DNA of 64,000 nt from Gammaproteobacteria bacterium. GTDB lineage: Bacteria > Pseudomonadota > Gammaproteobacteria > SZUA-140. Below, in pieces: positions 893 through 16,952 of this stretch. The notes under the pieces were generated by a model. That model searched no databases. It was not told where the DNA came from and was given only the letters and a program-made list of their open reading frames with translations. Position 1 is the first letter of the stretch, and every line of letters starts with the position of its first letter. Position numbers and translations under genes: made by a program. The stretch spans positions 11,080 to 75,079 of the forward strand of contig JBHHVB010000006.1 of assembly GCA_046754065.1 (NCBI GenBank). The letters run 5' to 3'.

Positions 893-947
893 TATCTATC
901 ACACCACATCTTTGAAAAAACCAGTCAGGTCTGCCCGAACCACCTTG

Positions 948-1560: not shown

Positions 1561-1567
1561 TATCGAG

Positions 1568-2638: not shown

Positions 2639-2646
2639 CTGGAAAA

Positions 2647-3207
2647 TTACGGCTTGTTGTCTTTTAATTCCGGTGCCGTATTCTTTCCTTCCTTGCTCGC
2701 AAGAAGTTCGGCCTTTTCCGCTTGCGTAATATAGTTCGGCTTTTTATTTGGGCGCCCGTATATTTTCTTGATCATAACCTCACCCAGGAAGCCTCCAACC
2801 CAGGCTACTTCTACTGTAATAATCACCGGAAGAATCCAGTACAAAAACGGTAATGTTTCACCTTCGCCCGGGGGGGTAATAAATGTCAGGCTATAATAGC
2901 AGTAGCCACGAACAAGGACTGGTGCGAATCCGCTTAGTATTTTTCCACCGAGACCGTAGATCGATGTAACTACAAACCCGCCAATTAATGGAACGATGAA
3001 CATATCTACCATCAACATTGGCGTAAAATAACTCAGCAAATAGCCGGGTACTTTTATAACTTCAAGCTGGACACCTACCAGTGTATCACCAACGTAGATT
3101 ACAACCGCACCAGCCAATACTGAGACTGATACAAAAAAAATCTCTTTATATAAATTATTCACCTGTCGACTCGTCATCCGGATAGGCCTTTCCGGTAAGT
3201 TTTTCAT
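2647..3207 (-). CDS. Hypothetical polytopic membrane protein (186 aa; start may be Met-11 at 3177)
   Basis: ORF with 4-5 hydrophobic helices and a Lys-rich C-terminal tail. It overlaps the upstream cytochrome c gene. No motif recognised. Confidence 0.5.
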   Translation of the reverse strand: MKNLPERPIRMTSRQVNNLYKEIFFVSVSVLAGAVVIYVGDTLVGVQLEVIKVPGYLLSYFTPMLMVDMFIVPLIGGFVVTSIYGLGGKILSGFAPVLVRGYCYYSLTFITPPGEGETLPFLYWILPVIITVEVAWVGGFLGEVMIKKIYGRPNKKPNYITQAEKAELLASKEGKNTAPELKDNKP

Positions 3208-3664
3208 ATTCGGCTTTTTTTGTTTCCTCCAGGTACCAGTCTTCTACCTTCAAACTGGCAAGAAACGAGGCTAACGTCTTGCGTTCGTTCTCTGGTAAAT
3301 TGGAGTACGAGGGCATACGGTATTCTTTTTTAAGTCTGGACTGAAGTATAGACTGTGGATTTTTCGCCGAAAAATACGTGTACAACCAGTCCTCAGTTCG
3401 TATTGAACCGATTCCATCAAGAGCCGGGGCTGGTAACCCCCCTCTCATGAGGTCCTTTAGCGTCCAGAGAGAGTGGCATTCCCGGCAATTTTCCCGATTT
3501 ATTAATACTGCACCTTTTTCGCTTAAATCCTTAGAGGCTGTACTATAGTAGGGAATACCGGGATCTTTGTTTTTCTCGATAAAACTGTTTTTGAGATTGA
3601 GTCCGAAAAACAAAAGGACAACCATACCCAAAGTAGAATAAATTACTTTTTCACCTCTTTTCAT
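3155..3664 (-). CDS. Membrane-anchored monohaem c-type cytochrome
   Basis: N-terminal TM helix, a single CRECH haem-c motif and a candidate distal Met (YRMPSY). It is a clear paralogue of 10351..10965 (LDGIGSIRTEDWLYTYF versus LDGLGSRRSRDWIYTFL). Confidence 0.8.
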   Translation of the reverse strand: MKRGEKVIYSTLGMVVLLFFGLNLKNSFIEKNKDPGIPYYSTASKDLSEKGAVLINRENCRECHSLWTLKDLMRGGLPAPALDGIGSIRTEDWLYTYFSAKNPQSILQSRLKKEYRMPSYSNLPENERKTLASFLASLKVEDWYLEETKKAEYEKLTGKAYPDDESTGE

Positions 3665-3938: not shown

Positions 3939-3952
3939 GTTACATTTACTCC

Positions 3953-4270
3953 TTAAAAAAGGTGGCCAAACAGTAATTGAGCTGCACCAAATATTGACGC
4001 GGCAATAACACCTAGCACTAACCAGATAAACATTATTCGTTCACCTGTTTTCATTCCTTTACCTGATTTAACACCTTCTCTTTTAGCGCTGAGAAAAAAA
4101 TTATATAAAATCGCTGAAAATACAATTATGCCAAACACCATAAATATAAATATCCCGATGCTATACTCCTGACTGCGCATACTTTCTATAGTAAACGCGT
4201 CAGTTTCTGCAAATTCCTGGATTTTCAGTATTCTACTAAAATCCGTAGCAAGAGATAGTTTGGTCAACAT
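3953..4270 (-). CDS. Hypothetical small membrane protein (105 aa)
   Basis: ORF with two to three hydrophobic helices, in the same orientation and tightly packed within the oxidase cluster. Confidence 0.45.
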   Translation of the reverse strand: MLTKLSLATDFSRILKIQEFAETDAFTIESMRSQEYSIGIFIFMVFGIIVFSAILYNFFLSAKREGVKSGKGMKTGERIMFIWLVLGVIAASIFGAAQLLFGHLF

Positions 4271-4324
4271 CAGGGAAAGATTAAATTCCGGAAGCTTAAA
4301 CAGAGGAGGGGTACGAAAAAGATA

Positions 4325-4353
4325 TCGCCCCGTAGGGCGACATCTTTTTTTCT
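4325..4353. terminator. GC-rich hairpin with flanking A/T runs inside the oxidase cluster (possible bidirectional intrinsic terminator or attenuator)
   Basis: The stem is TCGCCC (4325-4330) pairing with GGGCGA (4335-4340), with loop CGTA. It is followed by a T8 run on the plus strand and preceded by AAAAAGATA, which reads as TATCTTTTT on the minus strand. Confidence 0.4.
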
Positions 4354-4376
4354 AACTTGCTTGAAACATCCAAGTG

Positions 4377-4490
4377 CTATTTATCATCCTTATCGTAGTT
4401 ATCTATAAAAAAACTATAGATAAACGGGAATATAAACACAACCAAAATTGCTACAAGCATTGCCAGTGGCGGATTATCTACGTCTAACAT
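4377..4490 (-). CDS. Candidate 37-aa single-TM peptide
   Basis: My translation is MLDVDNPPLAMLVAILVVFIFPFIYSFFIDNYDKDDK. The ATG at 4488-4490 lies 14 nt after the upstream stop and is preceded by GGGAGAAAGGA. It is too short for the ORF track. Confidence 0.4.
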   Translation of the reverse strand: MLDVDNPPLAMLVAILVVFIFPFIYSFFIDNYDKDDK

Positions 4491-4504
4491 ATCCTTTCTC
4501 CCTC

Positions 4505-5131
4505 TTAATGAACGTCGTGTCTTGGTTGCCAGGTACTAGGTGGTAAACGCTTGATCACTAACGTTACCGCGATACAGAAGTAGGTCACATAGAATACATC
4601 AATTGTGTACCCTTTATCCCACCATGGTTGTATTCTCACCCGAACACCGTTTGCATCAGGATCTGTCTCGAAATTAGCTAATACGACCTTATCACCAACT
4701 ACAGTATATTCAGCTAAATTTACGCCAGAATTCTTGAGCTCGATAATCTGATCCTTAATCATCCGCAGATCGTCCATCTCCAAGGGGTGACGTTCTTGCA
4801 AAGCAGCCCATTCACTTCCCCGAGACTTTACCGTATCGACGATATACTTCATCGCAGCGGCATCGTCGGTCGCATTCGTCACTTCAGGAGAGTCCATCAA
4901 CGCAACGTATTCTTCGTAGATCGAAGCCTGTGGACGTTGCCCCCATAGCGGTGCGGTAATAAGGAAAGCAGTGATAATCGTAATCGCCATCAACCAAACA
5001 ACTGGAATCGGCACACGGTTGTTATCCTCAGTGATCCCACCCAGGCTCTCACCTTCCCAAACTCTTTTAAAGCTTTCTATTTCATCATCATGCGAGAGCG
5101 TGATGAGTGGATTATCTAATTTCCAAGCCAT
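4505..5131 (-). CDS. Haem-less membrane protein with a CcoP N-terminal (FixP_N)-like segment
   Basis: VWEGESLGGITEDNNRVPIPVVWLMAITIITAFLITAPLWG resembles the recalled FixP_N pattern (W-D-G-I-x-E-x-N-N-P-L-P-x-W-W followed by a TM helix). There is no CxxCH anywhere. A second TM helix sits near the C-terminus. Confidence 0.45.
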   Translation of the reverse strand: MAWKLDNPLITLSHDDEIESFKRVWEGESLGGITEDNNRVPIPVVWLMAITIITAFLITAPLWGQRPQASIYEEYVALMDSPEVTNATDDAAAMKYIVDTVKSRGSEWAALQERHPLEMDDLRMIKDQIIELKNSGVNLAEYTVVGDKVVLANFETDPDANGVRVRIQPWWDKGYTIDVFYVTYFCIAVTLVIKRLPPSTWQPRHDVH

Positions 5132-5144
5132 TAGTCATCCCCCC

Positions 5145-6095
5145 TTATTTGAGGCTTAAAACAAAGTCAATCAACTTCTTAATTTCGGTATCTTTTGCGT
5201 ACTCAGGAACTTCTGGTGGATAGATACGCTTACCTTCTACGTATTCATCGTAGTCCTTGCGCCATTGATCGAAATTAATAGCCTGACCGTTAGCATCTGT
5301 TTGACCCCACAAATAATCAAACCTTGGCATGATAGAATGTGGCTGCACCAAACGCGGATTGAAAAAGTGCATCAACATCCATTCTCTGGAGGAGTTTCTG
5401 GAACCTACATGCATTAAATCAGGCGCTTTTCTATCTGATCCGAATGCTGTAGGTGATTCACCATTAAAATCGCCCAGACGCGGTGGAACACCGAAGTACT
5501 GCCAGTCTTGAGTTTGCTCAGGCAGTAGTGTGTGACACCACCAGCATTGTTCACGAACGAAAATGATTTTACCTGCACCAATTTCGAAGGTATTCGCTTC
5601 ACCTGCGGTAGCTAAAACACCATCAGGTGTCCATCCACGTGTTGCGGTAGCGTTTTCAATGTAAGGAAACTCCTTACCATTGACCGTACCATGACCCACA
5701 ACAAAGACTGCACCTGAAGATTCGCTTGCAGAACCTACCTGGCCTTGTGAAGTTGTTAACTCCGCAGATTCAGTACCAAGAATTCTTGGATGACGTATAC
5801 CATTTGGAAACGGAATTCCCGCCTTGTATACATATGCATCCATCGTATCCATGGCAGCACCAGTTTTAGGGTCCTTATTCAATCTAACGGTCAGAGGTTT
5901 CCCGTCACCGTTGTTGAATGGATCCTCATAACTGAAGCCTGAAATACGGCCGTATGAAAGTTCTTTTGTGATACCAATTTCTGAGGTACCCACCCCTACG
6001 ATAGTCAAGCTCGGCATATACAAGGTAATCATCATCGATCCACCCAGTGCCAGCCCGAACAAGCGTACACCTATTTTATATTCACGAAATGCCAC
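5145..6095 (-). CDS. ccoO: CcoO/FixO-like monohaem cytochrome c subunit with a ~150-aa insertion after the TM anchor
   Basis: N-terminal TM helix. The C-terminal part reads REQCWWCHTLLPEQ...FGSDRKAPDLMHVGSRNSSREWMLMHFFNPRLVQPHSIMPRF, matching the recalled CcoO core (GC-x-x-CHSQ, GS-x-R-x-GPDL, P-x-S-x-MP). It is 316 aa, compared with about 200 aa for typical CcoO. Confidence 0.8.
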   Translation of the reverse strand: MAFREYKIGVRLFGLALGGSMMITLYMPSLTIVGVGTSEIGITKELSYGRISGFSYEDPFNNGDGKPLTVRLNKDPKTGAAMDTMDAYVYKAGIPFPNGIRHPRILGTESAELTTSQGQVGSASESSGAVFVVGHGTVNGKEFPYIENATATRGWTPDGVLATAGEANTFEIGAGKIIFVREQCWWCHTLLPEQTQDWQYFGVPPRLGDFNGESPTAFGSDRKAPDLMHVGSRNSSREWMLMHFFNPRLVQPHSIMPRFDYLWGQTDANGQAINFDQWRKDYDEYVEGKRIYPPEVPEYAKDTEIKKLIDFVLSLK

Positions 6096-6139
6096 TTTTG
6101 TTACCCTCCCTTATCCGGTTAACAATTGGTAGTTATCGA

Positions 6140-7546
6140 TTAACGTTCGTATGCAAGCTCATGTGGCATACGACCAGCAGGTACGATGGTACCTTCTCTA
6201 GCGGTCATCCACATATTGTAGAGCCATACTACATTACCAGTGAACACCATAGTGCCTCCTACCCAGCGAGCAATCATGTACGGGTGTTCTGCGATTACTA
6301 CGTCGATATATGGCACCTCATAAATCTTCGCTGCACCCTGAATCAGACCTGCAATCGTAATTGAGATCCAATAGGTACAGAAACCGATCAATAGGAACCA
6401 GAAGTGGAAGTTAGCTAATGCCAGTGAATACAGCTTACGACGCATAACTGTTTGTAAACCATAATACACGGCAGCACCTTCCAGGAAGGTGGAGAAGCCC
6501 AGTAATGCCAAATGCGCATGAGCAACAATCCAGCCAGTACCATGAATATACCAGTTAATAGCACGAGTCTGTTGAAAACCACCCTGCATATTTAGTGGAA
6601 TAGCTAAAAGCACACCTACCATGGTAAAGCGCACTTCGATATTGTTTACAAAGTAATGCCATTTACCCGTCATTGTTAACAGCAGGTTTGATACGAATGC
6701 AATCGCAGGCACAAGAATCAATACACCTTCAACTGATGCAAATGACTTGGTCCACTCAGGAAGTGGAGATGACATAATATGGTGAGCCGCCGGTGTCGAA
6801 TAGAACACAACAACAGACCAGAAATGAACGTGTCCAATTCTGTGAGAGTATAGCGGGTTACCCGTAATCTTCGGAATTGTGTAGTACGCGATTGCCGCAG
6901 CAACTGGTGTAATCCAGAGACCCAGGATGTTATGCGCGTGCCACCATGTGAGATACGCTTCAGTCAAGCCACTCAACTGAAAGTATTCTGGAAGATTACC
7001 AACCAGTACCACGATACCAACCATGAAACAGCCAGCCCCGAAGAACCAGTTAGTGGTATAGATACCCTGGGTTCTACGATGGATAATGGTCATCCAAACG
7101 TTGATACCTAAAGGCGCTACCATAAAGAATAGAACGAACAGATCAATAAACCATGGAAAGTCTGTGTACTCACGACCGGACGTCATCCCGCACCATAACA
7201 AAGTCAGTGCTAGTGATAAACCGACGTTGAACAGTAAGCAGTTCCAAAGACCCAGCTTCTCTGACCACAACTTGGTGTTACCTAGTGCTGGTGTGATATA
7301 CATCATCGCCATAGCAAATGCCATGGTAATCCAACCAAAGATTACTGCGTGCACATGCACCTGACGCATATGACCAAATGCAAACATTTCCGATCCTGTC
7401 ACAAAGTCCGGAAATGCCAGTTTAGCCGCATTAAAGGATCCGAGACCGGTCCCTATAACAAACCATATAATTGACGAAAACCCCCAATATACCGCTGAAC
7501 TACCTTTTGGTATATCTTCGTTTCTCGCGAAAAGGTACTTAAACAT
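6140..7546 (-). CDS. ccoN: cbb3-type (C-family) haem-copper oxidase catalytic subunit I
   Basis: About 12 TM helices. Motifs seen: RQVHVHAVIFGW (low-spin haem His), SGREYTDFPWFID, WWHAHN (CuB His), VHFW...VVFYSTPAAHH (Tyr five residues before the HH pair, as for the C-family cross-linked Tyr) and VAHAHLALLG (the HxH haem ligands). Confidence 0.9.
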   Translation of the reverse strand: MFKYLFARNEDIPKGSSAVYWGFSSIIWFVIGTGLGSFNAAKLAFPDFVTGSEMFAFGHMRQVHVHAVIFGWITMAFAMAMMYITPALGNTKLWSEKLGLWNCLLFNVGLSLALTLLWCGMTSGREYTDFPWFIDLFVLFFMVAPLGINVWMTIIHRRTQGIYTTNWFFGAGCFMVGIVVLVGNLPEYFQLSGLTEAYLTWWHAHNILGLWITPVAAAIAYYTIPKITGNPLYSHRIGHVHFWSVVVFYSTPAAHHIMSSPLPEWTKSFASVEGVLILVPAIAFVSNLLLTMTGKWHYFVNNIEVRFTMVGVLLAIPLNMQGGFQQTRAINWYIHGTGWIVAHAHLALLGFSTFLEGAAVYYGLQTVMRRKLYSLALANFHFWFLLIGFCTYWISITIAGLIQGAAKIYEVPYIDVVIAEHPYMIARWVGGTMVFTGNVVWLYNMWMTAREGTIVPAGRMPHELAYER

Positions 7547-7625
7547 AATTTTCGACCCCCCTCGTATCCTACAATTTTATTACTAAATACATAATTTTGA
7601 TGACCAAATTCACAAACTGCAATTC

Positions 7626-7715
7626 TTAATGTTTACCTGGCATCAACAAATACCAAGCGAACCACATACTTGAGAATGCTAGTACTAAACAAAAGCCGGT
7701 TGCGATTGCTGACAT
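7626..7715 (-). CDS. Candidate 29-aa single-TM peptide immediately upstream of ccoN
   Basis: My translation is MSAIATGFCLVLAFSSMWFAWYLLMPGKH. A GGAGGG Shine-Dalgarno sequence lies 6 nt upstream of the ATG at 7713-7715. It shares an AWY[LI]L motif with the peptide at 11945..12040. Confidence 0.5.
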   Translation of the reverse strand: MSAIATGFCLVLAFSSMWFAWYLLMPGKH

Positions 7716-7752
7716 ATTCTTCCCTCCGAAAAAAATTCAAATATTAATTTTA

Positions 7753-8052
7753 TTAACCGTGTGCGCCGGCACTTTCAGCCTTTGCTTCCAGCTCACCGTG
7801 GCGACTCAACGCGACCATCGTAATGATCATGAAGGCCACCCCAAAAACAATCATCGACCAGTTTACAAAACCGTTGAAAGAAGTTGGATAATACTGCTGA
7901 GCTCCCCATCCCCCCCACATTTCAAATTTTCCGCGCCCCAAGGCACACATCATTGCGGCGCCAAACACACTACCGTTTCCCATGCCAGTTGTGACCCCGG
8001 CAATCAGACCTACCCAAAATGTCTTAGCGAATGACAATCTGTTATTTCCCAT
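7753..8052 (-). CDS. Hypothetical membrane protein (99 aa), first gene of the oxidase cluster
   Basis: ORF with two to three Gly-rich hydrophobic helices. A 500-bp non-coding region lies upstream. Confidence 0.5.
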   Translation of the reverse strand: MGNNRLSFAKTFWVGLIAGVTTGMGNGSVFGAAMMCALGRGKFEMWGGWGAQQYYPTSFNGFVNWSMIVFGVAFMIITMVALSRHGELEAKAESAGAHG

Positions 8053-8245
8053 GTGGCTCTCCCGTTCGCGATATCAAATTATTTGGCTTGTAACTGAACA
8101 ATGCAGTGAAATTAATCGAGTTATAATTTCGGTTTACATTGATTCAGAGTATTTATTCTTATCTCTCTACTTGAGTGGCGGCAGTTTTACATATACTTCC
8201 ATATACGTCAAGCCTTTATAAAGCAATAACAGCAGGCGGAAAAAC

Positions 8246-8274
8246 ATATTATTCTTGTCAAGTATGGGCGTCAA
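8246..8274 (-). promoter_or_regulatory. Candidate sigma-70 promoter for the oxidase cluster
   Basis: The minus strand reads TTGACG (8274-8269), a 17-nt spacer, then TAATAT (8251-8246), about 190 nt upstream of the first gene. This is a pattern match only. Confidence 0.25.
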
Positions 8275-8490
8275 AAATAAAAAAATATTTACATTACCTA
8301 AAGTTACACAAACCACAAGGTATCAAGCCTGCAACGCCCTAAGCTAAACCTTAAATATTTAAAATAAAAAAATAATTTGGTTAAATCCACCCGCTGCAAG
8401 TTATCCATAAACAAACATATCCACGCGCCATGAAATTACGTTAGAATTATGCCATTTAAAAACGGGTTGAGCGTGTCTTGTATAAGAAAA

Positions 8491-8534
8491 TGCCAATTTT
8501 GGCAGCAAGATTCAAAAGTTTTGAATTTAATCAA
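8491..8534. promoter_or_regulatory. Cluster of three dyad-symmetric elements (candidate regulator binding sites)
   Basis: TGCCAA-tt-TTGGCA at 8491-8504, the perfect palindrome ATTCAAAA-g-TTTTGAAT at 8510-8526, and TTGAATTTAATCAA at 8521-8534 (TTGA-N6-TCAA, an FNR/CRP-family-like box). All lie just upstream of the ATG at 8552. Confidence 0.3.
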
Positions 8535-8551
8535 TCTTTTTTACATAAAAT

Positions 8552-8788
8552 ATGCAAATCTCGATGAATAGCCGATACCCATTTCAGATCAAGGAAATCA
8601 TTATCTATGCGATGGTTGCGTTCGCATCTCTTGTGATACTTGGATATTCGGTACATATGTTGATTGGTGACATTGTCAGCCCCTCGACTGAAAAATTAGC
8701 TATCATCATCGCCTGCGTTGCTGGAGCCGCTGTCATCGCGTTTATGGCGTGGGACGTTGTAAAACAAAGAAAAAACAGAATGGGATAG
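8552..8788 (+). CDS. Hypothetical two-TM membrane protein (78 aa)
   Basis: ORF with two hydrophobic helices and a basic C-terminus. It is the only plus-strand gene between the two cytochrome clusters. Confidence 0.4.
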   Translation: MQISMNSRYPFQIKEIIIYAMVAFASLVILGYSVHMLIGDIVSPSTEKLAIIIACVAGAAVIAFMAWDVVKQRKNRMG

Positions 8789-8892
8789 CAGAAACGCTCA
8801 GGAACCGGACAGCGCGTCGATCTATTCTAGTAATTAACAAGTAATAGGGCAAAGCCGGACAGGAAACAATCTATTCCCACAAAGCCAGCAGG

Positions 8893-9345
8893 CTATTTAT
8901 AGATATTAAGCCTCGAGCATAGGTCCTTGTAATCGGCCTTACTGACAAACTGACCACGATGGAAAACGAACTGGCGCTTTTTACCCGTAATATCCATACC
9001 AGTCAAACCAAAAGATTTTCCCGCATAATCGGGATGAAAACGCAAATCTTTCGCTAAATCGACTTTATCGCCACCGTTTAGGTTTAACGCAACATTTTGC
9101 CTTGATACCTCCAGACTTTTAGGTGAAGAAGGTAACACCAGTAATCTGGTCAAAATGCGGTTCATACCAATGAAAAATATAAAACTTGCCAGAAAGAACA
9201 ACACGTAAGCAAGGGTTTGCCCACCGCTATACCATTGCTTGAAACAGAATGACAATAGCAGTAATACTGTTGGCACATAAAGCACCAAATCCCACAAAAT
9301 GCCTTTTTTATCTTTTACGAGTTGATAACTTGAGACTTCACCCAT
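8893..9345 (-). CDS. Hypothetical membrane protein (two TM helices plus a ~80-aa soluble C-terminal domain)
   Basis: ORF starting 3 nt after the stop of the thioredoxin-like gene. It is the last gene of a tightly coupled four-gene unit. Confidence 0.5.
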   Translation of the reverse strand: MGEVSSYQLVKDKKGILWDLVLYVPTVLLLLSFCFKQWYSGGQTLAYVLFFLASFIFFIGMNRILTRLLVLPSSPKSLEVSRQNVALNLNGGDKVDLAKDLRFHPDYAGKSFGLTGMDITGKKRQFVFHRGQFVSKADYKDLCSRLNIYK

Positions 9346-9348
9346 GAC

Positions 9349-9846
9349 CTAACCCGCAGCTAAAGCATTTTGAATCACTGCATCCAGTTCGCCATATAAC
9401 AAACGCCCAGCCTGCTTGAACTGGACAACATTATTCTCGTCAATCACAAATGTCCAGGGATCACCCTGAATCTGATACGCGATAAAGGCTGCGGTATTCT
9501 GGTACTGATCCATATGTAAAAACAGAATATCTTCGCCATATTTATTGATTAGTGCCTTCAGCATCTGTAATTGCTTATCACAAACCGTACAGTGTCCTGG
9601 TGTAGCAAATTCAAGAACGACAGGCTTTCCAGTGGCTAATGCATCATCCAGCGAATATTGGTACATCCGTTCATCAGGTTGCCTGTATGTGGTAATACGA
9701 CTAAAGTCACCATCAACATCGGCAAGGGTTTTGGTTTTTAGGCTGGGTGCTTTCATCCCGACTCTCAAGCTGCTTCCCTCGGGCTTAAAGTCACAGCCAC
9801 TTAACAACAATGCTGTAAAAACAATTATTAGAAGCGCTAATCTCAT
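9349..9846 (-). CDS. Thioredoxin-fold (TlpA/ResA/Sco-like) lipoprotein with a CxxC motif
   Basis: I prefer the Met at 9844-9846, giving MRLALLIIVFTALLLSGC, a lipoprotein signal with an LSGC lipobox. That start forms an ATGA overlap with the upstream stop. The redox motif reads FATPGHCTVCDKQL. Confidence 0.65.
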   Translation of the reverse strand: MRLALLIIVFTALLLSGCDFKPEGSSLRVGMKAPSLKTKTLADVDGDFSRITTYRQPDERMYQYSLDDALATGKPVVLEFATPGHCTVCDKQLQMLKALINKYGEDILFLHMDQYQNTAAFIAYQIQGDPWTFVIDENNVVQFKQAGRLLYGELDAVIQNALAAG

Positions 9847-10376
9847 ATTTGTTTTTCCCACCCCATACATGTTCTGAATATATTATACCCCCAAATGCAG
9901 TTGGCCAATAATACCATTGAACCAAACATACCCATCATAGCCAGAATAGGGCGAATTATAGCTTCAACCTGTTCAGGTGATGAATGAACACTGGCATTCC
10001 CACCCAACACACCAGCAGTGGTAAACAAAACCACCATACCAATGAGCCCAAAATTATGAATCCAGAAGTGGGCTATAACCAACTTAAGACTAAATATAGG
10101 CCGTTTTACCAATCTGGGAATGATAAAATAGATCGCGCCAAAGATAGCCATTTCCACCCAACCCAGCAGATTTATATGGGTATGCGCCCGAACAATTAAA
10201 TTACCATGCATCCTGTGGTCAACAAAGTGACGAAATTCAGCGATACCGCCCATCATCGCTCCCCAGGAAAAGCCAATAATGCTATATATTACACATGCAT
10301 AGATAAACCACAGCGTGTATCTAGTATAAACTTTGTCCTGCACCCAGGGCTCATTCATTTCGCTGTTGTCCCTCAC
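9843..10376 (-). CDS. Mini haem-copper-oxidase-like membrane protein, homologous to only the C-terminal helices (about IX-XII) of CcoN
   Basis: An ungapped comparison with the CcoN in this window gives about 21 identities over 67 positions. The mini protein segment is LIVRAHTHINLLGWVEMAIFGAIYFIIPRLVKRPIFSLKLVIAHFWIHNFGLIGMVVLFTTAGVLGG. The CcoN segment is GWIVAHAHLALLGFSTFLEGAAVYYGLQTVMRRKLYSLALANFHFWFLLIGFCTYWISITIAGLIQG. The HxH, LLG, FSL/YSL, HFW and AG..GG positions are retained. The CuB ligands and the helix-II His are absent. Confidence 0.75.
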   Translation of the reverse strand: MRDNSEMNEPWVQDKVYTRYTLWFIYACVIYSIIGFSWGAMMGGIAEFRHFVDHRMHGNLIVRAHTHINLLGWVEMAIFGAIYFIIPRLVKRPIFSLKLVIAHFWIHNFGLIGMVVLFTTAGVLGGNASVHSSPEQVEAIIRPILAMMGMFGSMVLLANCIWGYNIFRTCMGWEKQI

Positions 10377-10965
10377 CCATTATTTCATTTTGCTTATCTG
10401 ACGATCTGACATCCTTGTACTTTTCTTTCCACCCTTCAGGTGCCCAGGTTCCAATCATCTCATCAATAAATTCAGACCGGCCCTCTGGCGGTAGCGGTGC
10501 GGTCGATGCCCCTCTTTCGGCTCTTAATCCGGAAAGAAAGGCTGCTATCAGTTGAAGATCCTCATCTGGCATATCGGCCACATAACCCGCTTCTTTTCCT
10601 GATCCATGGTCGAGGGTTACGGTGTTGTGTTCTTCCTCATATGCGGACTCCGGGTCCGTCAAAAAGGTATATATCCAGTCTCGGCTTCTGCGCGAACCCA
10701 ACCCGTCTAAAGACAGCCCCATACTCGTCCCACTTCCCATGGCTCGATGGCACGAGGAACAACGTCCCTTTCTAAAGAGAATTGATCCCTTTTTTCCTTC
10801 CTCTGAAAAATCGTAATGGGTTTTACTGGCAAACATCGGTTTATCTGTAGTAAGGCGTATTGTTTCCATCGCGACGTATGCGATGAAACACACCCCGATA
10901 AACGCAATGATAATACCAAATAATATTTTTTCACCTTGCTTTAGAGGCTGTTTAGCTTTTGCCAT
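10351..10965 (-). CDS. Membrane-anchored monohaem c-type cytochrome (paralogue of 3155..3664)
   Basis: N-terminal TM helix, a single CSSCH motif and a candidate Met ligand (VADMPDE). It shares LDGxGSxRxxDWxYT and FLxxL blocks with the 169-aa cytochrome. Its 3' end overlaps the mini-HCO gene. Confidence 0.8.
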   Translation of the reverse strand: MAKAKQPLKQGEKILFGIIIAFIGVCFIAYVAMETIRLTTDKPMFASKTHYDFSEEGKKGSILFRKGRCSSCHRAMGSGTSMGLSLDGLGSRRSRDWIYTFLTDPESAYEEEHNTVTLDHGSGKEAGYVADMPDEDLQLIAAFLSGLRAERGASTAPLPPEGRSEFIDEMIGTWAPEGWKEKYKDVRSSDKQNEIMGEGQQRNE

Positions 10966-11033
10966 GAGGTAGACTTTCTATAATGTTTTGGGAGATGGAA
11001 GGCGTTTTGAGTCGTATAAAACCCGGAGAAAAC

Positions 11034-11058
11034 AAAGGCGGGCATAATACCCGCCTTT
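11034..11058. terminator. Intrinsic terminator downstream of the dihaem cytochrome gene
   Basis: The stem is AAAGGCGGG pairing with CCCGCCTTT, with a 7-nt loop. On the minus strand the hairpin is followed by TTTGTTTTCTCC. Confidence 0.6.
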
Positions 11059-11080
11059 TAAAAAAGATACAACTTGATTT

Positions 11081-11860
11081 TTAGTGATCTTCGAACTGCC
11101 TGTGTGCCCTTGGACGACCCATTTCGCCTGGACTCTGGGTTCTGGAACCTGTGGAACTCAGGAAAGTCGCAAGGTCCCTGATATCATTATCATCCAAAAG
11201 CTGAGCAACTTTTTGCATGGCTTCATGAGGATCATTGTGTCTTGCACCACTTCTCCAGTTTTTAAGCTGATTGGTGATGTATACATATTTCTGTAAACCA
11301 ATCAACGGGAAGATCGGATCAACACCACGACCATTGTAACCATGACAAGACCGGCAAGCAGGTATCCCTTTGTCGGTATCTCCGTAATTAACAAGCGCTT
11401 TGCCTCGGTACGAAACACCAATTTCTGTACCACCCGCTTCCAGCGCCTTCAAATCAGATGGTTGAAAATCAGCATCCCAGGTGCTAACAAAGGCGGCAAT
11501 GTCGATTCTATCCTGCTCTGACAATCCCAACGCATTGGTATTCATAACAAACATGGTTGTATCCTGGCGCTTACAGGTTGAATGGTCTTCAGGATTTGAA
11601 CAGGTGCCAAAATCAGTTAATTGCTTGACAATGAACTGATAAACCTGACCGACCAGGCGTGGCGTTCCTAAAGCATCATTACCTTCGCCATGCTCGCCAT
11701 GGCATGAAGTACAGGCCGGTACATCGCCCTTACCATTCATGAAAATATTTTTACCGTTGCCAGGATTAGCGTGCGATAAATCAACCGCACTAGCAGAAGT
11801 AGATATTACAAAACCAATAACTATTGCGGTACTCGGTATTAACTTGGCTAGAAGCGACAT
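11081..11860 (-). CDS. Periplasmic dihaem c-type cytochrome (c4-like)
   Basis: Signal peptide (AIVIGFVISTSASA) and two haem motifs, CTSCH and CRSCH, in two repeated class-I-like halves. Confidence 0.85.
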   Translation of the reverse strand: MSLLAKLIPSTAIVIGFVISTSASAVDLSHANPGNGKNIFMNGKGDVPACTSCHGEHGEGNDALGTPRLVGQVYQFIVKQLTDFGTCSNPEDHSTCKRQDTTMFVMNTNALGLSEQDRIDIAAFVSTWDADFQPSDLKALEAGGTEIGVSYRGKALVNYGDTDKGIPACRSCHGYNGRGVDPIFPLIGLQKYVYITNQLKNWRSGARHNDPHEAMQKVAQLLDDNDIRDLATFLSSTGSRTQSPGEMGRPRAHRQFEDH

Positions 11861-11944
11861 GAGCTACCGTCCTCCCTTTTTCATTAAATTATATTTAGCA
11901 GGCTACAATCTTTGAAAATTATTTATTAAATGTAGTCTACGAGT

Positions 11945-12040
11945 TTACTTAGAATTTGCTTTGAGAATATACCAAGCAAGCCCCCAGGCTAACGGAAACC
12001 AAAGCGCGTACAGTGTGAAAACTTCTCCAGTTTGAAGCAT
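11945..12040 (-). CDS. Candidate 31-aa single-TM peptide upstream of the dihaem cytochrome
   Basis: My translation is MLQTGEVFTLYALWFPLAWGLAWYILKANSK. A GGAGG sequence lies 6 nt upstream of the ATG at 12038-12040. It shares the AWY[LI]L motif with the peptide at 7626..7715. Confidence 0.45.
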   Translation of the reverse strand: MLQTGEVFTLYALWFPLAWGLAWYILKANSK

Positions 12041-12556
12041 ATTAACCTCCCAATTGCTGCAAAAGCCCTAGCGGGCATTAACCCCCAAAACGGGTGTATG
12101 TATATCATGATCACAAGTCGTAATGCAAGATACACTTAATCCGATGAGTTGGGGATTGTAACCCTGTTAAATTCAAATGTTAAGTTCTAAATATCAAATA
12201 TTTCCCAAGGCTTGGCGATTAGCGAACTCAACAAGGTCCCAAGCACTGCTATTAATACCCTCAACTAACTATTTTTATTAGAATTTCCGGCAATATTAAG
12301 CATGCCTGGTTTAGTCCGGTATCTGGCTATTTTCGCCATCAAAATTCACTTAAACCGCCCTGGTGCCCCGTTGTATTTACTTGACCATTTTAGTCGGCAT
12401 CCTCAGATTACGAAATAATTTAATAGGTGTTGGCCTTCACAATTATCCTGCTTACACCGGAATACGCTTCCAATTTAATTCCAGGCATCTAGAAAGTGAC
12501 CAAAGTTATTATTTACGTTATTCTTTTGCGCTTTCGAAAATCCGTAACGACCGATT

Positions 12557-14014
12557 ATGACCTTATTAGAAAAATTGTTACCCAAAAACTGGACGCCCCG
12601 CTATTGGACACTGTTCAGCCTTTTATGCTGGGGTGGAGTTATCCTGTCATCAGGCGTTTTGCGTTTTGATGCCTATGGCATTGATGAATCAGCTGCTAAA
12701 GCATTGTTGCTCAGCTGGTCGGTTGCTGACAGGGTAATTAGCCCGGTGGTTATATTTGGTTTACCTGATTTTCGATCAATCCTTTTTTTACCTGTTGGTC
12801 TATATTGGCCGGGTAGCATTCTTGCGGCAAAGGTGTTTACGCTACTCATTATGTTTATCGGTGCAATGTTTTTTTACCGCTGGAACAAAAATAACAGCGG
12901 CGCTGAATCCGCATTAATCGCAACAGGCCTTTTACTTATTTCCCCTCTAACGCTGGCTCAAATCGACGCGATCGGTATAGGGCCCTACCTGATATTCACT
13001 TTTGGTCTGGGTATTTGGCTCGATCAAAAACACCGTACCGCAAATAAGCCTTTGGGTGCCTGGTATTTTATTCAACTTTTACTTATTGTATTTGCTGTCA
13101 GTCTTCATCCGATGGCTCTGGCTTACCCGATTGCACTTGCTATTTACTGGTACAACAATCCGGTGGATGAAAAACAACAGAAACATGCCTTCATAGGCAT
13201 AGGCTTAGCGACCATTTTCGCACTGCTTCTTCATATTGGATGGACACATGTCATCTGGTTTTCAAATCCATTTGGTTTATTCATCAATATAGTTATAGGA
13301 GAGTGGACCACCGATACCTTGCGCATGATGATAGGATCGGTACTTTTAGGCCTTTTGGTTATCACGCTGCTGGCAGATTGGAAAAGCCTGACGTCCAGCC
13401 TGACTGGTTTAATTTTAATGATTTCTTTTATCATCGGGTTAACCTGCGCTGATGAAACCTGGGCATTGCTATCATTTTTGCTACTCGTCTATCTTGGCAC
13501 GCCACGCCTGATACGCGTCAATGCAGCACTGGGCAAAAACGGTTTTGCGGGCCAACGTGGCATTGTCATGGTAGTATTTTCTTTATTGGCGATTTTATTC
13601 ATGCAAGCGGACAAGGCCCAGTACTATGCCAATGCACAAAACCAACTATCACCCCAAGACAGGTTAATCCTGACGCTGGAATCCATGTTTCTGGACATCG
13701 ATGAAGAAACCGAAATTCTGGTCATGAGTGAATGGCCGGCACGGACCATGCTCGCCACAAAGCGGAATGTACTGCCATTGCCTCCTTCTTTTGAGAACAG
13801 CCAGGAGCTAATGGAGAATATTAAGGGAACGACACATGTTATGTTCGATAAATCCAGCGAACAGAATAAGGTATTGGGGACTCAACTGGCCGAACTAAGC
13901 GGCCTGACCAAGACATTATCGCTTCAAGAAGGCGGCGTCATCATGGAGATCAAACGTTCATCCGACGACAAAAACATTCCTATGGGACATGACTCATTAC
14001 AAGGAATTCAATAA
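12557..14014 (+). CDS. Polytopic membrane protein (485 aa), possibly a GT-C-fold (ArnT/PMT-like) glycosyltransferase-like protein
   Basis: More than ten hydrophobic helices, an acidic first loop (FDAYGIDESAAK) and a soluble C-terminal ~110 aa. The functional guess is weak. Confidence 0.6.
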   Translation: MTLLEKLLPKNWTPRYWTLFSLLCWGGVILSSGVLRFDAYGIDESAAKALLLSWSVADRVISPVVIFGLPDFRSILFLPVGLYWPGSILAAKVFTLLIMFIGAMFFYRWNKNNSGAESALIATGLLLISPLTLAQIDAIGIGPYLIFTFGLGIWLDQKHRTANKPLGAWYFIQLLLIVFAVSLHPMALAYPIALAIYWYNNPVDEKQQKHAFIGIGLATIFALLLHIGWTHVIWFSNPFGLFINIVIGEWTTDTLRMMIGSVLLGLLVITLLADWKSLTSSLTGLILMISFIIGLTCADETWALLSFLLLVYLGTPRLIRVNAALGKNGFAGQRGIVMVVFSLLAILFMQADKAQYYANAQNQLSPQDRLILTLESMFLDIDEETEILVMSEWPARTMLATKRNVLPLPPSFENSQELMENIKGTTHVMFDKSSEQNKVLGTQLAELSGLTKTLSLQEGGVIMEIKRSSDDKNIPMGHDSLQGIQ

Positions 14015-14035
14015 TCAAGCCCTGTCACCCAAGGT

Positions 14036-14851
14036 TTATCGCTGGCATTTTGAACAATAAAAAGTCGATCGTTGTGCCAGATTGATTTTTTTAATCGCTG
14101 CGCCACATTGGAAACAGGGCTGGTCGGCTCGATCATATACCTTCAGGTGCTGACTGAAATACCCGGGCCTGCCATCGTTGTTTACAAAATCACGTAACGT
14201 TGTACCACCCTGTTTTATCGCCGCCGCAAGCACCTTTTGCATTGCTCTACAAAGTGCCCCAAGCCTGTCCATAGAGATTCGACCCGCTGCACGCTGGGGA
14301 TGTATATTGGCAAGAAATAATGCCTCACTTGCATAAATATTTCCCACACCAACGACTATCTTTGAATCCATGATAAATTGTTTGATCGAAATTTTTCGCC
14401 CTCTTGAACGCTCGTAAAGGTATTTCGCATTGAATAGCGGCATCAAGGGCTCAGGCCCAAGATTCTTTAAAAGCTCATGTTCCAGCGGATTTTTTCCGGT
14501 CCACAATACCAGACCGAATCGCCTGGGATCTCTGTAACGCAAGCATCGATTGTCATTAAACACAATATCAATATGATCATGTTTTTCCGGCTTAACTGAA
14601 TCTTCAACAATTCTTATCGACCCGCTCATTCCCAGATGGATTATTACCGACCCGGTATCCAACCCAAGAATGATATATTTTCCGCGCCGCTTAACACTTT
14701 TAACAATATTACCAGCCAGCTTACGATTAAAGCTTGCTGGCACGCGATACCTCAATCGCGCCTCACGAACCGTTACCCTACAGATTTTTTTATCGGTAAC
14801 ATAACGTGCTATTCCACGCCTGGTGGTTTCTACTTCTGGTAGTTCTGGCAT
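14036..14851 (-). CDS. mutM: Formamidopyrimidine-DNA glycosylase
   Basis: It has the MPELPEVETTRRG N-terminus, an H2TH region and a C-terminal zinc finger (CFQC...CSKCQ). Confidence 0.95.
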   Translation of the reverse strand: MPELPEVETTRRGIARYVTDKKICRVTVREARLRYRVPASFNRKLAGNIVKSVKRRGKYIILGLDTGSVIIHLGMSGSIRIVEDSVKPEKHDHIDIVFNDNRCLRYRDPRRFGLVLWTGKNPLEHELLKNLGPEPLMPLFNAKYLYERSRGRKISIKQFIMDSKIVVGVGNIYASEALFLANIHPQRAAGRISMDRLGALCRAMQKVLAAAIKQGGTTLRDFVNNDGRPGYFSQHLKVYDRADQPCFQCGAAIKKINLAQRSTFYCSKCQR

Positions 14852-14969
14852 CTTTCCATCAACTGTTAGCTTGATCTGGTATGATTGAATTTAACAAAGT
14901 TTGGCCATCGTGCGGACTGTTAGTTAAATTTATACTCGATAATCCAGTTATGTACAGTATTACTATGAT

Positions 14970-16952
14970 ATGCCCTTTTCAAAACAGCCTGGCACGACGA
15001 TGATTTTAGGTGTCGATACAGGCGGTACCTTTACCGACTTCGTTTTTTACGATGGCCAGAAAATAATCGTGCACAAGGTTTTGTCTACGCCTGACGAACC
15101 CGAAGCCGCCATCATACAGGGTATCAACGATTTAAAAATTAACCACCAAGACCTGTATATCGTGCACGGCAGCACCGTGGCCACTAATGCTGTTTTGGAG
15201 AAAAAGGGGGTGACAACGGCATTTATAACCAATCATGGTTTTGGTGACATGTTAACAATTGGCCGCCAAACAAGAAACGAATTATATAATCTTCAACCTC
15301 AGCCCGCATCTCCTCCCGTACCTCGGGAACTATGCATTGAAACCGGGGGGCGCATTGCTTCAGATGGAACCGTCGTTGAACCACTAAGCAAGCAAGCGCT
15401 CTCCCAGCTTCGTAAACAAATAAAGGCAATATCGCCACAGGCCGTAGCAATCAACCTGCTCTTCTCATTTATCGATGACCGGTTTGAAAGCGAAATAGCA
15501 GCGGTTATTCCTGAAGGAATTTTTATTTCAAAGTCGTCAGCGATCTTACCGGAAATCAAGGAATATGAACGGGGTATTACGACCTGGCTAAATGCCTGTG
15601 TAGGTCCAATTGTTGAAAAATATATTGATCGCCTGCTTCAAAAGGTGCTGACAAACAAAGTTTCTGTTATGCAAAGTTCCGGGGGTACCGTGGCGGCTAC
15701 CCAAGCTGGCAAATTGGCAGTGCACATGCTGTTATCCGGACCGGCGGGTGGACTCTCCGGAGCGAAATTTGTTGCTAGCGCGTCTGGCAGGCAAAGACTA
15801 ATGACTTTTGATATGGGTGGAACATCTACCGATGTTGCCCTGATTGATGGTGATTTCAAGCTCACTAACGAAGGTCAAATTGCCTCCTATCCTGTTGCAA
15901 TCCCGATGGTTGATATGCATACCATTGGAGCCGGAGGAGGATCAATTGCACGCATCGATGCTGGAGGTATGCTACAGGTCGGCCCCAAATCTGCCGGCGC
16001 CCGGCCTGGCCCTGCGTGTTATGGAAATGGCAGCAAGCTGGCAACGGTGACCGACGCCAACCTGGTACTCGGTCGACTACCCAGGGATTCGGCTCTGGCT
16101 GGCCACATGCTGCTTGATTTCGAATCAGCAAACATTGCAATTGCCTCATTAGCCGATAAGATTGACAAGACCATCGAGGAAACCGCCGCCGGAATCGTTA
16201 GTATCGCCAATGAACACATGGCGAATGCATTACGCGTCATTTCAGTGCAACGCGGCTATAATCCACGCGATTTCACCCTGGTTTCATTTGGAGGGGCTGG
16301 AGGCTTGCATGTCTGTGCGCTCGCTGACGCATTAGGTATGAATAAGGCATTAGTGCCAATTCATTCGGGCGTTTTATCTGCATTGGGAATGCTCGCAGCA
16401 CCACGGGAACGTCAACTTTCTCGCACGATCTCTTGCGTTCTCGATAAATTTTCAATGACAGATTTTCACAAGCAGTTTAAATTACTGGAAGATGCCGGCA
16501 GAGAGGCTCTGCTTCGTGAAGGCGTTGACGAGACTGCTATTACCATTCAAAAATCGGTGGATCTGCGGTATCTGGGGCAAACCTTTACATTAAATATCGA
16601 TTGGTCAAATTCCGAGTCAATCATCCAGTCATTTCATCAGGCCCATAAACGTCGCTACGGACACACACTCGATTTGGCTATTGAATTAGTCAATATACGA
16701 ATGGCCATACAAGGACCACGATCTTCAATTCCATTAACAACCAGTTTTGCGACCAACAGCGTGCCATCCAGTTTCAGTAACGTTGTTGGCATTCAGTCAC
16801 CTGTTGAAATCATTACCCGAAGCTCGATTCAAACGGGCAAGGTAATTGGCGGTCCAGCGATTATTAGCGAAAATATTGCAACAACCTATATTCCACCCGA
16901 ATGGACGTATCAGATAGATTCTGTGGGCAACCTTCTCCTGAGTAAAAAATAA
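14970..16952 (+). CDS. Hydantoinase A/oxoprolinase (HyuA) family protein
   Basis: It has LGVDTGGTFTDFV, HGSTVATNA, FDMGGTSTDV and IGAGGGSIA motifs, typical of the ATP-dependent hydantoinase/oxoprolinase alpha part. No HyuB-like partner gene is adjacent. Confidence 0.85.
   Translation: MPFSKQPGTTMILGVDTGGTFTDFVFYDGQKIIVHKVLSTPDEPEAAIIQGINDLKINHQDLYIVHGSTVATNAVLEKKGVTTAFITNHGFGDMLTIGRQTRNELYNLQPQPASPPVPRELCIETGGRIASDGTVVEPLSKQALSQLRKQIKAISPQAVAINLLFSFIDDRFESEIAAVIPEGIFISKSSAILPEIKEYERGITTWLNACVGPIVEKYIDRLLQKVLTNKVSVMQSSGGTVAATQAGKLAVHMLLSGPAGGLSGAKFVASASGRQRLMTFDMGGTSTDVALIDGDFKLTNEGQIASYPVAIPMVDMHTIGAGGGSIARIDAGGMLQVGPKSAGARPGPACYGNGSKLATVTDANLVLGRLPRDSALAGHMLLDFESANIAIASLADKIDKTIEETAAGIVSIANEHMANALRVISVQRGYNPRDFTLVSFGGAGGLHVCALADALGMNKALVPIHSGVLSALGMLAAPRERQLSRTISCVLDKFSMTDFHKQFKLLEDAGREALLREGVDETAITIQKSVDLRYLGQTFTLNIDWSNSESIIQSFHQAHKRRYGHTLDLAIELVNIRMAIQGPRSSIPLTTSFATNSVPSSFSNVVGIQSPVEIITRSSIQTGKVIGGPAIISENIATTYIPPEWTYQIDSVGNLLLSKK

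Follow-up and report, generated by a model that had tools for sequence, protein, structure and literature searches.

Is the group of genes beside a divergent cbb3-type oxidase in an uncultured gammaproteobacterium a reduced copy of the oxidase locus itself, or is it a unit with a history and a role of its own? The window analysed here is a stretch of 64,000 nucleotides (nt; positions 11,080 to 75,079 of contig JBHHVB010000006.1, assembly GCA_046754065.1), and the block in question occupies positions 8893 to 12040. Its central gene encodes a protein that resembles only the last third of subunit I of the haem-copper oxidases (HCOs), here called the mini-HCO and labelled 'truncated CcoN' in the literature. 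A preliminary description of the locus, made from the sequence alone, had proposed that the block arose by duplication of the oxidase module followed by reduction and neofunctionalisation. Our analysis identifies it, almost certainly, as the "Cyc1 + truncated-CcoN" block of a conserved supercluster of ~25-30 genes around a CcoNO-only (distal-type) cbb3 oxidase, and the same near-certainty attaches to the homologies on which this identification stands. The evidence disfavours the duplication-reduction model, chiefly as a recent or local event. Most of what the preliminary description observed holds, its account of the evolution only in part. The best explanation for the function of the block, to which we give a probability of about 0.55, is that it would supply a small haem b/c membrane complex that is fed by the cytochrome Cyc1 and works with the CcoNO oxidase. 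The features of the block are as follows (aa, amino acids; TM, transmembrane).

11945..12040, minus strand: 31-aa peptide with a single TM helix, 5' of the c4 gene
11081..11860, minus strand: periplasmic dihaem cytochrome c4 of 259 aa, inferred Cyc1 orthologue, with two CxxCH motifs and two Pfam Cytochrom_C matches
11034..11058, minus strand: intrinsic-terminator-like hairpin with an 11-bp stem (6 GC pairs), a loop of 3 nt and the tail GTTTTCT
10351..10965, minus strand: membrane-anchored monohaem cytochrome c of 204 aa, with CSSCH and an N-terminal TM helix
9843..10358, minus strand: mini-HCO ('truncated CcoN') of 171 aa from ATG 10358, or 177 aa if GTG 10376 is used; four TM helices corresponding to HCO TM9-12
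9349..9846, minus strand: thioredoxin-fold lipoprotein (TlpA/CcmG/ResA-like), with CTVC and lipobox LLSGC, starting at ATG 9846; 173-aa open reading frame (ORF)
8893..9345, minus strand: 150-aa protein with a TM hairpin and a PH-like beta-sandwich domain, without known family

The six ORFs are all on the minus strand, at the positions first reported for them, and form two units, one consisting of the 31-aa peptide and the dihaem c4 and the other of the monohaem cytochrome, the mini-HCO, the lipoprotein and the 150-aa protein. The first unit had been called separately terminated, and the GC-rich hairpin with its T-run at 11058-11034, between the stop of the c4 gene and the start of the monohaem cytochrome gene, bears this out. 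Of the three junction lengths given in the preliminary description, an overlap of 4 nt and a gap of 3 nt stand, while the overlap of 26 nt applies only if GTG 10376 is the start of the mini-HCO. At this cytochrome/mini-HCO junction (ATGAATGA), ATG 10358 gives an overlap of 8 nt; this codon is conserved and preceded by a Shine-Dalgarno sequence (GAGGG), and conservation within the family begins there. The mini-HCO and lipoprotein genes overlap in the 4 nt ATGA, with the lipoprotein starting at 9846, and 3 nt separate the lipoprotein gene from that of the 150-aa protein. The overlap of start and stop codons shows that the second unit is translationally coupled. A promoter scan gave matches at chance level only, and no Rfam families were found in positions 1-16000 of the window.

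The mini-HCO is a genuine relative of subunit I. The 177-aa ORF matches Pfam COX1 over profile positions 306-427 of 436 (53.9 bits; cut-off, 34.8) and reaches 47.6 bits against NCBIfam TIGR00780, for which the cut-off is 583. The reported match to the C-terminus of CcoN was confirmed, with 29% identity and an E of 9e-15 to residues 320-449 and a profile E of 2.8e-14 for the region of CcoN helices 9-12. Subunit I of the HCOs has a three-fold internal repeat, which accounts for the additional matches of the mini-HCO to the other two thirds of CcoN, first and middle (E about 1e-5). The AlphaFold2 (AF2) model of the protein (pLDDT, 80) consists of four long helices (residues 15-45, 54-89, 97-128 and 134-170), and its best Foldseek matches are to the cbb3 CcoN structures 9g6b, 6xkw and 3mk7, with TM-scores of 0.72-0.75. 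Confidence in the model is lowest around the start of the helix that carries an HxH motif, as expected where a site needs a cofactor or a partner. Residues H65 and H67 of this motif align with H345 and H347 of Pseudomonas stutzeri CcoN (3MK7 chain A), which ligate haem b3 and haem b, respectively; H57, in a loop, aligns with H337, and H103 aligns with the HFW histidine. The alignment spans TM9-12 only, and the mini-HCO has no counterpart of TM1-8, hence neither the TM2 histidine (H60) nor any CuB ligand. Thus, of the features that define an HCO catalytic subunit, the TM10 HxH is present, with haem binding predicted from the alignment, and the twelve-helix core and the CuB/FeB ligands (one histidine in TM6 and two in TM7) are absent. 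Since all CuB ligands and the TM2 histidine are missing, the mini-HCO alone cannot reduce O2 or NO. Database searches returned 775 matches of uniform length (~170 aa), with identities of 72-83% among the 120 homologues listed. The alignment has 79 invariant columns, including H65, H67, E75, H103 and H107, i.e., four TM histidines and a membrane glutamate. Identity of 70-82% across Gamma- and Zetaproteobacteria indicates strong purifying selection.

The nearest relatives of the mini-HCO are not oxidases. An exhaustive HMMER search of 1.8 billion cluster representatives showed them to be free-standing proteins of 150-210 aa and proteins of ~400 aa with three units and an HxH in each. With the hidden Markov model (HMM) of the mini-HCO family, free-standing relatives score 81-169 bits, the C-terminal third of the neighbouring CcoN scores 60-64 bits, level with the full-length HCO P0141, and a second mini-HCO found elsewhere in the supercluster scores 37-54 bits. 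Profile comparisons place this second protein at an E of 1.5e-16 to the first mini-HCO and of 8.5e-10 to CcoN. In a neighbour-joining tree of 112 four-helix units (100 bootstraps), the mini-HCO and three free-standing proteins form a clade of their own (85%), the C-termini of neighbour-type CcoN proteins form another (100%), and the second mini-HCO forms a third (99%), which joins units of multi-unit COX1-like proteins of 600-700 aa (93%). The backbone of this tree is unresolved (support ≤41%), and the tree shows only a lack of support for a sister relation to the neighbouring CcoN, not the true position of the mini-HCO. Nitrospirota, Thermodesulfovibrionales, Gemmatimonadota and Chloroflexota commonly have more distant free-standing units, and the family also occurs as tandem genes (in Nitrospirota) and as the fused triple-unit proteins of ~400 aa. 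We conclude that the mini-HCO belongs to an old and widespread family of free-standing one-third HCOs and is not a recent truncation of the neighbouring ccoN. A search of genome contigs with P0126 yielded only two more betaproteobacterial copies of the same cluster, and P0140, a close outgroup, had no relatives among the genome contigs searched.

Several members of this wider family deserve description in their own right. Proteins P0132, P0142, P0144 and P0149 (~390-420 aa) carry three tandem four-helix units, each with an HxHxxLLGW-type motif, and form symmetric 12-TM relatives of subunit I with six histidines and without an obvious CuB site; we found neither a name nor literature for these four proteins. 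Of 80 distant loci (L162-L241), 36 have a single unit of ~136 aa, and 34, 9 and 1 have two, three and four units in tandem, respectively, with a divergent Crp/FNR-family regulator alongside in 46 and a DUF1858 protein in 8; the hosts include presumed anaerobes. The second mini-HCO (L085, 12965-13591, minus strand; also in L082-L126) has ~175-200 aa and the motif HAHINVIGG. It sits at the far end of the supercluster, beyond the left edge of the window, after genes for a CcoG-like protein, a 146-aa protein and a 100-aa monohaem cytochrome.

The other gene with a clear counterpart in the oxidase locus is that of the 204-aa cytochrome, a Pfam monohaem Cytochrom_C protein, which the preliminary description had paired with the 169-aa cytochrome of that locus. 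The two are homologous (24% identity; pairwise E, 1e-13), and their family profiles (60 sequences each) align in hhalign with 99.3% probability and an E of 1.2e-20 over 132 columns that include both the TM anchor and the haem domain. The C..CH, LDGxGSxR..W and FLxxL blocks listed as shared are real conserved columns. The 'MP' block is not one of them: where the 169-aa cytochrome has its conserved MPS, the alignment shows EAG in the 204-aa protein, and the methionine of the 'DMP' in the latter is not conserved. The relationship is also specific to this pair. The specificity of the 204-aa family HMM was assessed on 386 CxxCH-bearing ORFs from all fetched loci; it matches 70 of 70 orthologues of the 169-aa cytochrome at 24-61 bits, c4 domains reach at most 17 bits, and every other ORF stays at or below 16 bits except a frame-shifted fragment of a 204-aa orthologue in L030 (120 bits). 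No solved cytochrome structure scores above 30 bits against the 204-aa cytochrome, the best being ActA of alternative complex III (30 bits) and NorC (20 bits). Of the marks of the CcoO/NorC type, namely an N-terminal TM anchor, one CxxCH and a conserved distal methionine (MP motif), both cytochromes have the anchor and CxxCH; matches to FixO and NorC are only weak. In the 204-aa family, C69, C72 and H73 are invariant, as is the motif T117-x-D119-H120-G. At the presumed position of the distal ligand, the 169-aa family has RLK..MPS, and the 204-aa family has EAG, with the invariant TxDHG a few residues upstream, a pattern suggesting a change of ligand between the two cytochromes. The pair is an ancient duplication within the supercluster.

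The block is held together over long evolutionary distances. A scan of one genome per species gave 380 confirmed relatives of the mini-HCO, of which the best 80 loci were used; these derive from gammaproteobacterial metagenome-assembled genomes (Ca. Tenderia, Thiohalomonadales and "Ectothiorhodospiraceae/Chromatiaceae") and from Zetaproteobacteria, including Mariprofundus ferrooxydans PV-1. In these loci, the truncated-CcoN orthogroup is accompanied by the cytochrome (80/80), the thioredoxin-fold lipoprotein (79/80) and the 150-aa protein (75/80), at 68-79% identity, and tblastn with all window proteins showed an array of 11 kb, from the 31-aa peptide to a 127-aa protein, to be collinear in nearly all 80. 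The co-occurrence of the two modules, on which the preliminary description made its model depend, is borne out: CcoN adjoins the block in 58 of the 59 loci with enough sequence for assessment, and the block and the CcoNO locus travel together in Gamma-, Zeta- and Betaproteobacteria. Beyond the left edge of the window, the supercluster comprises an 869-aa membrane protein, a CcoG-like polyferredoxin, the 146-aa protein and the small monohaem cytochrome, with the second mini-HCO on the opposite strand. In Betaproteobacteria, the block is found at the opposite end of the supercluster with its internal order kept (L100, L106 and L115). In Gallionellaceae/Sideroxydans, it adjoins the second mini-HCO, in either orientation, together with a 78-aa and a 485-aa protein, and in L243 (5450-8900) it lies inside the oxidase operon, in the order ccoN-ccoO-p208-p37-c4-cytochrome c-mini-HCO-p105-trx-150 aa. 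These rearranged loci indicate that the block is a cohesive unit, which is shuffled within the supercluster but rarely leaves it.

This supercluster has been described before, and the window locus is a further member, from an uncultured gammaproteobacterium, of the already published "Cyc1 / truncated CcoN / distal cbb3" cluster. Emerson et al. (2013; PMC3770913) described a set of 20 genes with potential redox activity that Sideroxydans ES-1 and Mariprofundus PV-1 share in conserved order; 14 of them are also present in Leptospirillum. Eddie et al. (2017; PMC5371394) located the c4 gene of Ca. Tenderia that encodes Cyc1, whose expression on cathodes is very high, in a region with synteny to Mariprofundus. 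Zhou et al. (2022; PMC8788666) tied a cyc1 homologue to the cbb3 cluster and observed high expression of the distal cbb3. A Tenderiales preprint (10.1101/2022.05.06.490989) shows exactly this gene order, with two genes labelled "truncated CcoN", and calls the region "a sort of alternative complex IV"; the layout of the window is that of its Fig. 2B. The supercluster occurs in neutrophilic Fe(II) oxidisers and electroautotrophs among the Proteobacteria, namely Tenderiales-like Gammaproteobacteria, Zetaproteobacteria and Gallionellaceae.

Did the block nevertheless originate as a partial copy of the adjacent oxidase locus, with ccoN giving rise to the mini-HCO, cytochrome to cytochrome and peptide to peptide, followed by reduction and a new function in this lineage? 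Some of our results are those expected from such an event. Both protein pairs are significantly homologous, the modules co-occur, the 204-aa cytochrome has lost the MPS that the 169-aa cytochrome keeps, consistent with functional divergence, and, among full-length HCOs, the C-terminal third of the neighbour-type CcoN tops the mini-HCO HMM (60-64 bits versus 30-58 bits for most others). However, an all-against-all BLASTP of 25 cluster proteins recovered only these two paralogous pairs, with nothing else beyond marginal similarities (p146/p208, E 0.002; c4/204-aa cytochrome and p127/p146, E >0.01). Only two of the six genes therefore have counterparts in the oxidase locus, the gene order is not collinear, and no DNA repeats linking the two modules were found. 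The supposed peptide pair is not homologous: hhalign finds no match between the profiles of the two families (42 and 69 loci; probability, 1%; E, 0.057), and the 31-aa family (consensus LAAFVLKKNS) does not conserve the AWY[IL]L shared here, which is peculiar to the variant in this window. For the mini-HCO, free-standing relatives from other phyla outscore the neighbouring CcoN, its clade was never placed as sister to the C-terminal clade of the neighbour, and the same supercluster holds a second, very different mini-HCO. Both paralogues are, moreover, already distinct in Gamma-, Zeta- and Betaproteobacteria. On this evidence, any duplication is ancient and predates the spread of the cluster over three proteobacterial classes, and a copying event in this lineage is improbable. 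Public annotations such as "cbb3-type cytochrome c oxidase subunit I" or "truncated CcoN" might also suggest a decaying remnant, i.e., a ccoN pseudogene fragment with hitch-hiking ORFs. This reading is refuted by the uniform length, high identity and invariant columns of the mini-HCO homologues described above and by synteny that has held in three classes.

What, then, might the block do? We propose that the mini-HCO oligomerises or docks on a partner and would thereby hold a b-type haem between subunits via H65/H67; CcoN, which holds haem b between H60 and H347, offers a model for such a site. Fused proteins of ~400 aa with three HxH units (P0132, P0142 and P0144) show that such units do come together in 12-TM rings. 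A small haem b/c membrane complex would result from association of the mini-HCO with the 204-aa cytochrome, and the odds that these two proteins do make a redox-active haem complex appear to us about even. Electrons would reach the complex from Cyc1, and it would either cooperate with the CcoP-less CcoNO oxidase or belong to it; such an accessory or partner role is plausible, if somewhat short of an even chance. The lipoprotein may mature the cytochrome or keep cysteines reduced. The suggestion in the preliminary description that the dihaem c4 is an electron donor agrees with a published Cyc1 model (PMC5371394 and PMC8788666), which is itself unproven. Other observations weigh against this proposal. 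Haem binding, oligomeric state and partners, like every step of the mechanism, are deduced from homology and gene linkage. The mini-HCO residues H103 and H107 are found close to the end of their helix that faces the cytoplasm. Co-occurrence was probed mostly with the mini-HCO, and the reverse direction is covered only in part. Linkage is not obligatory, because in L058 (Mariprofundaceae; 9417-11506) the four-gene operon stands alone between housekeeping genes (queG-like and ppk1), and the adjoining 6.6 kb downstream and 9.4 kb upstream hold no oxidase genes. Zetaproteobacteria usually have no adjacent c4 gene. Finally, free-standing relatives in Nitrospirota have no cytochrome c neighbour and lie beside Crp/FNR regulators, a context that hints at a different or more general role.

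Other functions can be read from the same data. The block may be a biogenesis module, in which the mini-HCO serves CcoN as a scaffold or chaperone for haem b (or metal) and the lipoprotein, like TlpA, provides reductant for the maturation of copper centres or cytochromes, so that the products are assembly factors rather than a working enzyme. The mini-HCO mimics exactly that part of CcoN which ligates both haems, a CxxC thioredoxin-fold lipoprotein is typical of cytochrome or Cu-centre maturation, and the supercluster holds other maturation genes (FixS-like, CcoG-like and FGE-sulfatase-domain). Nevertheless, we think an assembly role unlikely: tight translational coupling to a dedicated c-type cytochrome and the presence of a highly expressed Cyc1 next to it speak rather for electron transfer, chaperones are rarely 70-82% identical across classes, and we know of no HCO-like cbb3 assembly factor. 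It is also possible to see in the mini-HCO/cytochrome pair a sensor or low-capacity detoxifier that binds O2 or NO independently of the oxidase, as part of a gas-sensing or stress module. The operon can stand alone, as in L058, and 46 of the 80 loci with distant units of Nitrospirota/Thermodesulfovibrionales have the divergent Crp/FNR-type regulator next to these units, with a DUF1858 protein adjacent in some. Those relatives, however, are only 30-40% identical and lack the cytochrome, thioredoxin and 150-aa partners; the window has no regulator in or beside the block, the mini-HCO has no second metal site recognisable by homology, and the linkage is to respiratory genes, all of which make a sensory role quite improbable. 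A broader reading starts from the family rather than from the operon. The mini-HCO may represent or mimic the HCO block before triplication, within an old phylum-spanning family (four helices and HxHxxLLGW) that builds head-to-tail haem-binding rings of 8 or 12 helices and was recruited, with a cytochrome c, into the distal cbb3 chain of iron oxidisers. Each haem would be held between His(i) in one unit and His(i+2) in the following one, in the manner of H60/H347 and H345/H207(CuB) between the three pseudo-symmetric thirds of CcoN; the fused ~400-aa proteins, with HxH in every unit, are part of this family. We found nothing relevant in the literature on a mini-HCO family, a described triplication or DUF2871, and we regard this reading as doubtful. 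The haem b/c complex working with the CcoNO oxidase remains our preferred explanation.

The dihaem cytochrome has two Pfam Cytochrom_C matches and one to Cytochrome_CBB3, with the haem motifs CTSCH and CRSCH, and matches the structures of P. stutzeri c4 (1etp; 75 bits, E 4e-20) and Acidithiobacillus ferrooxidans c-552 (1h1o; 71 bits, E 7e-19). It is syntenic with the di-haem cytochrome of Ca. Tenderia (ALP51722 / Cyc1), and from synteny statements in PMC5371394 and PMC8788666 we infer that it is orthologous to Cyc1 of PV-1. The lipoprotein matches Pfam AhpC-TSA, Thioredoxin and Redoxin, and weakly DsbE/CcmG in NCBIfam and the PDB; it misses every cut-off of the NCBIfam equivalogues (19 versus 123 bits). 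The 150-aa protein has no Pfam or NCBIfam match; the named members of its family (191 members) are all 'hypothetical', and its AF2 model (pLDDT, 88) has no significant PDB match, only weak PH/PTB-like ones. The 31-aa peptide represents a family (MLxTGxVxxLYxxWFxxAFxLAxFxLKKNS) found 5' of c4 in 42 of 61 loci.

The genes around the block are the following.

12557..14014, plus strand: 485-aa polytopic membrane protein that co-migrates with the block, without Pfam family
8552..8788, plus strand: 78-aa two-TM protein, on the opposite strand and kept with the block
7626..7715, minus strand: 29-aa single-TM peptide, directly upstream of ccoN; conserved ORF LAFSSMWFAWYLLMPG
6140..7546, minus strand: CcoN, catalytic subunit of a C-family HCO, full length (468 aa); COX1 positions 6-436 of 436, 245 bits
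5145..6095, minus strand: CcoO-like monohaem subunit of 316 aa with a long N-terminal extension; Pfam FixO, 61 bits
4505-5131, minus strand: 208-aa cluster protein with a faint FixP_N match
3155..3664, minus strand: monohaem cytochrome c of 169 aa with a membrane anchor, paralogous to the 204-aa cytochrome and retaining a conserved RLK..MPS motif
1568-2638, minus strand: membrane-anchored FGE-sulfatase-domain protein, 191 bits

The oxidase locus begins downstream of the block with a 99-aa membrane protein, the 29-aa peptide, CcoN and the CcoO-like subunit, which are followed by several small membrane proteins, a FixS-like protein, the 169-aa cytochrome and the FGE-sulfatase-domain protein. Both CcoN and CcoO are intact; no ligand is missing, nor is the cross-link tyrosine. 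CcoN scores 208 bits against its P. stutzeri counterpart, with H60, H207, Y251, H257, H258, H345 and H347 all conserved, and 220 bits against NCBIfam ccoN (TIGR00780; cut-off, 583), consistent with a divergent 'distal' type. The CcoO-like subunit is likewise below the cut-off of NCBIfam ccoO, and the locus has no CcoP. The idea of a split gene, with the mini-HCO supplying a missing part of CcoN, was rejected because the 468-aa protein is complete with all ligands. CcoN of the window has HxH in all three thirds (HVH in TM2, HAH in TM6 and HAH in TM10) and is more symmetric in this respect than P. stutzeri CcoN. The 208-aa protein and the 146-aa protein (L081, 14452-14892) share a weak N-terminal similarity (E 0.002) and may be haem-less relics or replacements of the CcoP membrane anchor. 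All three proteobacterial classes keep the gene of the FGE-sulfatase-domain protein in the oxidase operon. The left end of the window cuts, at 1-947, the gene of the 869-aa membrane protein, which has a spermine-synthase/methyltransferase-like domain and carries the supercluster on toward CcoG in L081 and related loci.

The small and flanking genes are similarly conserved. The ORF of the 29-aa peptide, often missed by gene callers, is present directly 5' of ccoN in 69 of 70 loci, and its product is probably an unannotated small subunit of the oxidase. The 78-aa protein has tblastn matches in 65 of 80 loci, always beside the 150-aa gene, and moves along with the block in Betaproteobacteria. The 485-aa protein adjoins the block in Gammaproteobacteria and in the rearranged betaproteobacterial loci L100, L106, L115, L242 and L243. 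Since both relocate with the block in Betaproteobacteria, the 78-aa and 485-aa proteins probably belong to its functional unit.

The supercluster is one of the few gene sets common to neutrophilic iron oxidisers and cathode-oxidising electroautotrophs. If the cytochrome/mini-HCO pair is a subunit or partner of CcoNO, it would define an electron route from extracellular iron or electrodes to O2 and would explain how a cbb3 oxidase works without CcoP. Free-standing and triple-fused thirds of HCOs, in turn, would provide a directly testable model for the origin of the 12-helix core by triplication.

How does the block compare with systems already known? Helices 9-12 of P. stutzeri CcoN (3MK7) share with the mini-HCO the fold (TM-score, 0.72-0.75), the HxH corresponding to H345/H347 and the loop histidine corresponding to H337; the mini-HCO differs in having no TM1-8, H60, CuB ligands (H207, H257 and H258), cross-linked tyrosine or proton channel. 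In the cytochrome c-dependent nitric oxide reductase (cNOR), as here, the gene of a membrane-anchored monohaem cytochrome c precedes that of an HCO-type membrane protein, NorC scores 20 bits against the 204-aa cytochrome, and NorB is the top phmmer PDB match of the mini-HCO. The mini-HCO, however, corresponds in extent to only one third of NorB and has no FeB ligands, and its likeness is spread over two of the three NorB thirds, a reflection of the internal repeat, not of orthology. With Cyc1 and the c4 cytochromes (1H1O and 1ETP), the dihaem protein shares the two-domain dihaem class I fold and the place beside a cbb3-type oxidase (PMC8788666); it is longer (259 aa) and is preceded by the gene of a conserved 31-aa TM peptide. 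The lipoprotein resembles TlpA, CcmG (DsbE) and ResA in its thioredoxin fold, its extracytoplasmic lipoprotein nature, its CxxC and its position in a cytochrome/oxidase operon, and differs in scoring far under all equivalogue cut-offs. The closest system is the cbb3-1/cbb3-2 region of Ca. Tenderia electrophaga (ALP51721-ALP51744, with 'truncated CcoN' as ALP51724; bioRxiv 10.1101/2022.05.06.490989), from which the window is essentially not different; this region and the 20 genes shared by ES-1 and PV-1 (PMC3770913) are like the window in gene content and order. The order in common with Ca. Tenderia runs from an unknown gene or peptide through the di-haem cytochrome, monohaem cytochrome, truncated CcoN, thioredoxin and three to four small proteins to CcoN, CcoO, a monohaem cytochrome, CcoG and the second truncated CcoN. 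What our analysis adds to the published work on this cluster is the test of paralogy, the placing of truncated CcoN in a wider family and the analysis of its ligands.

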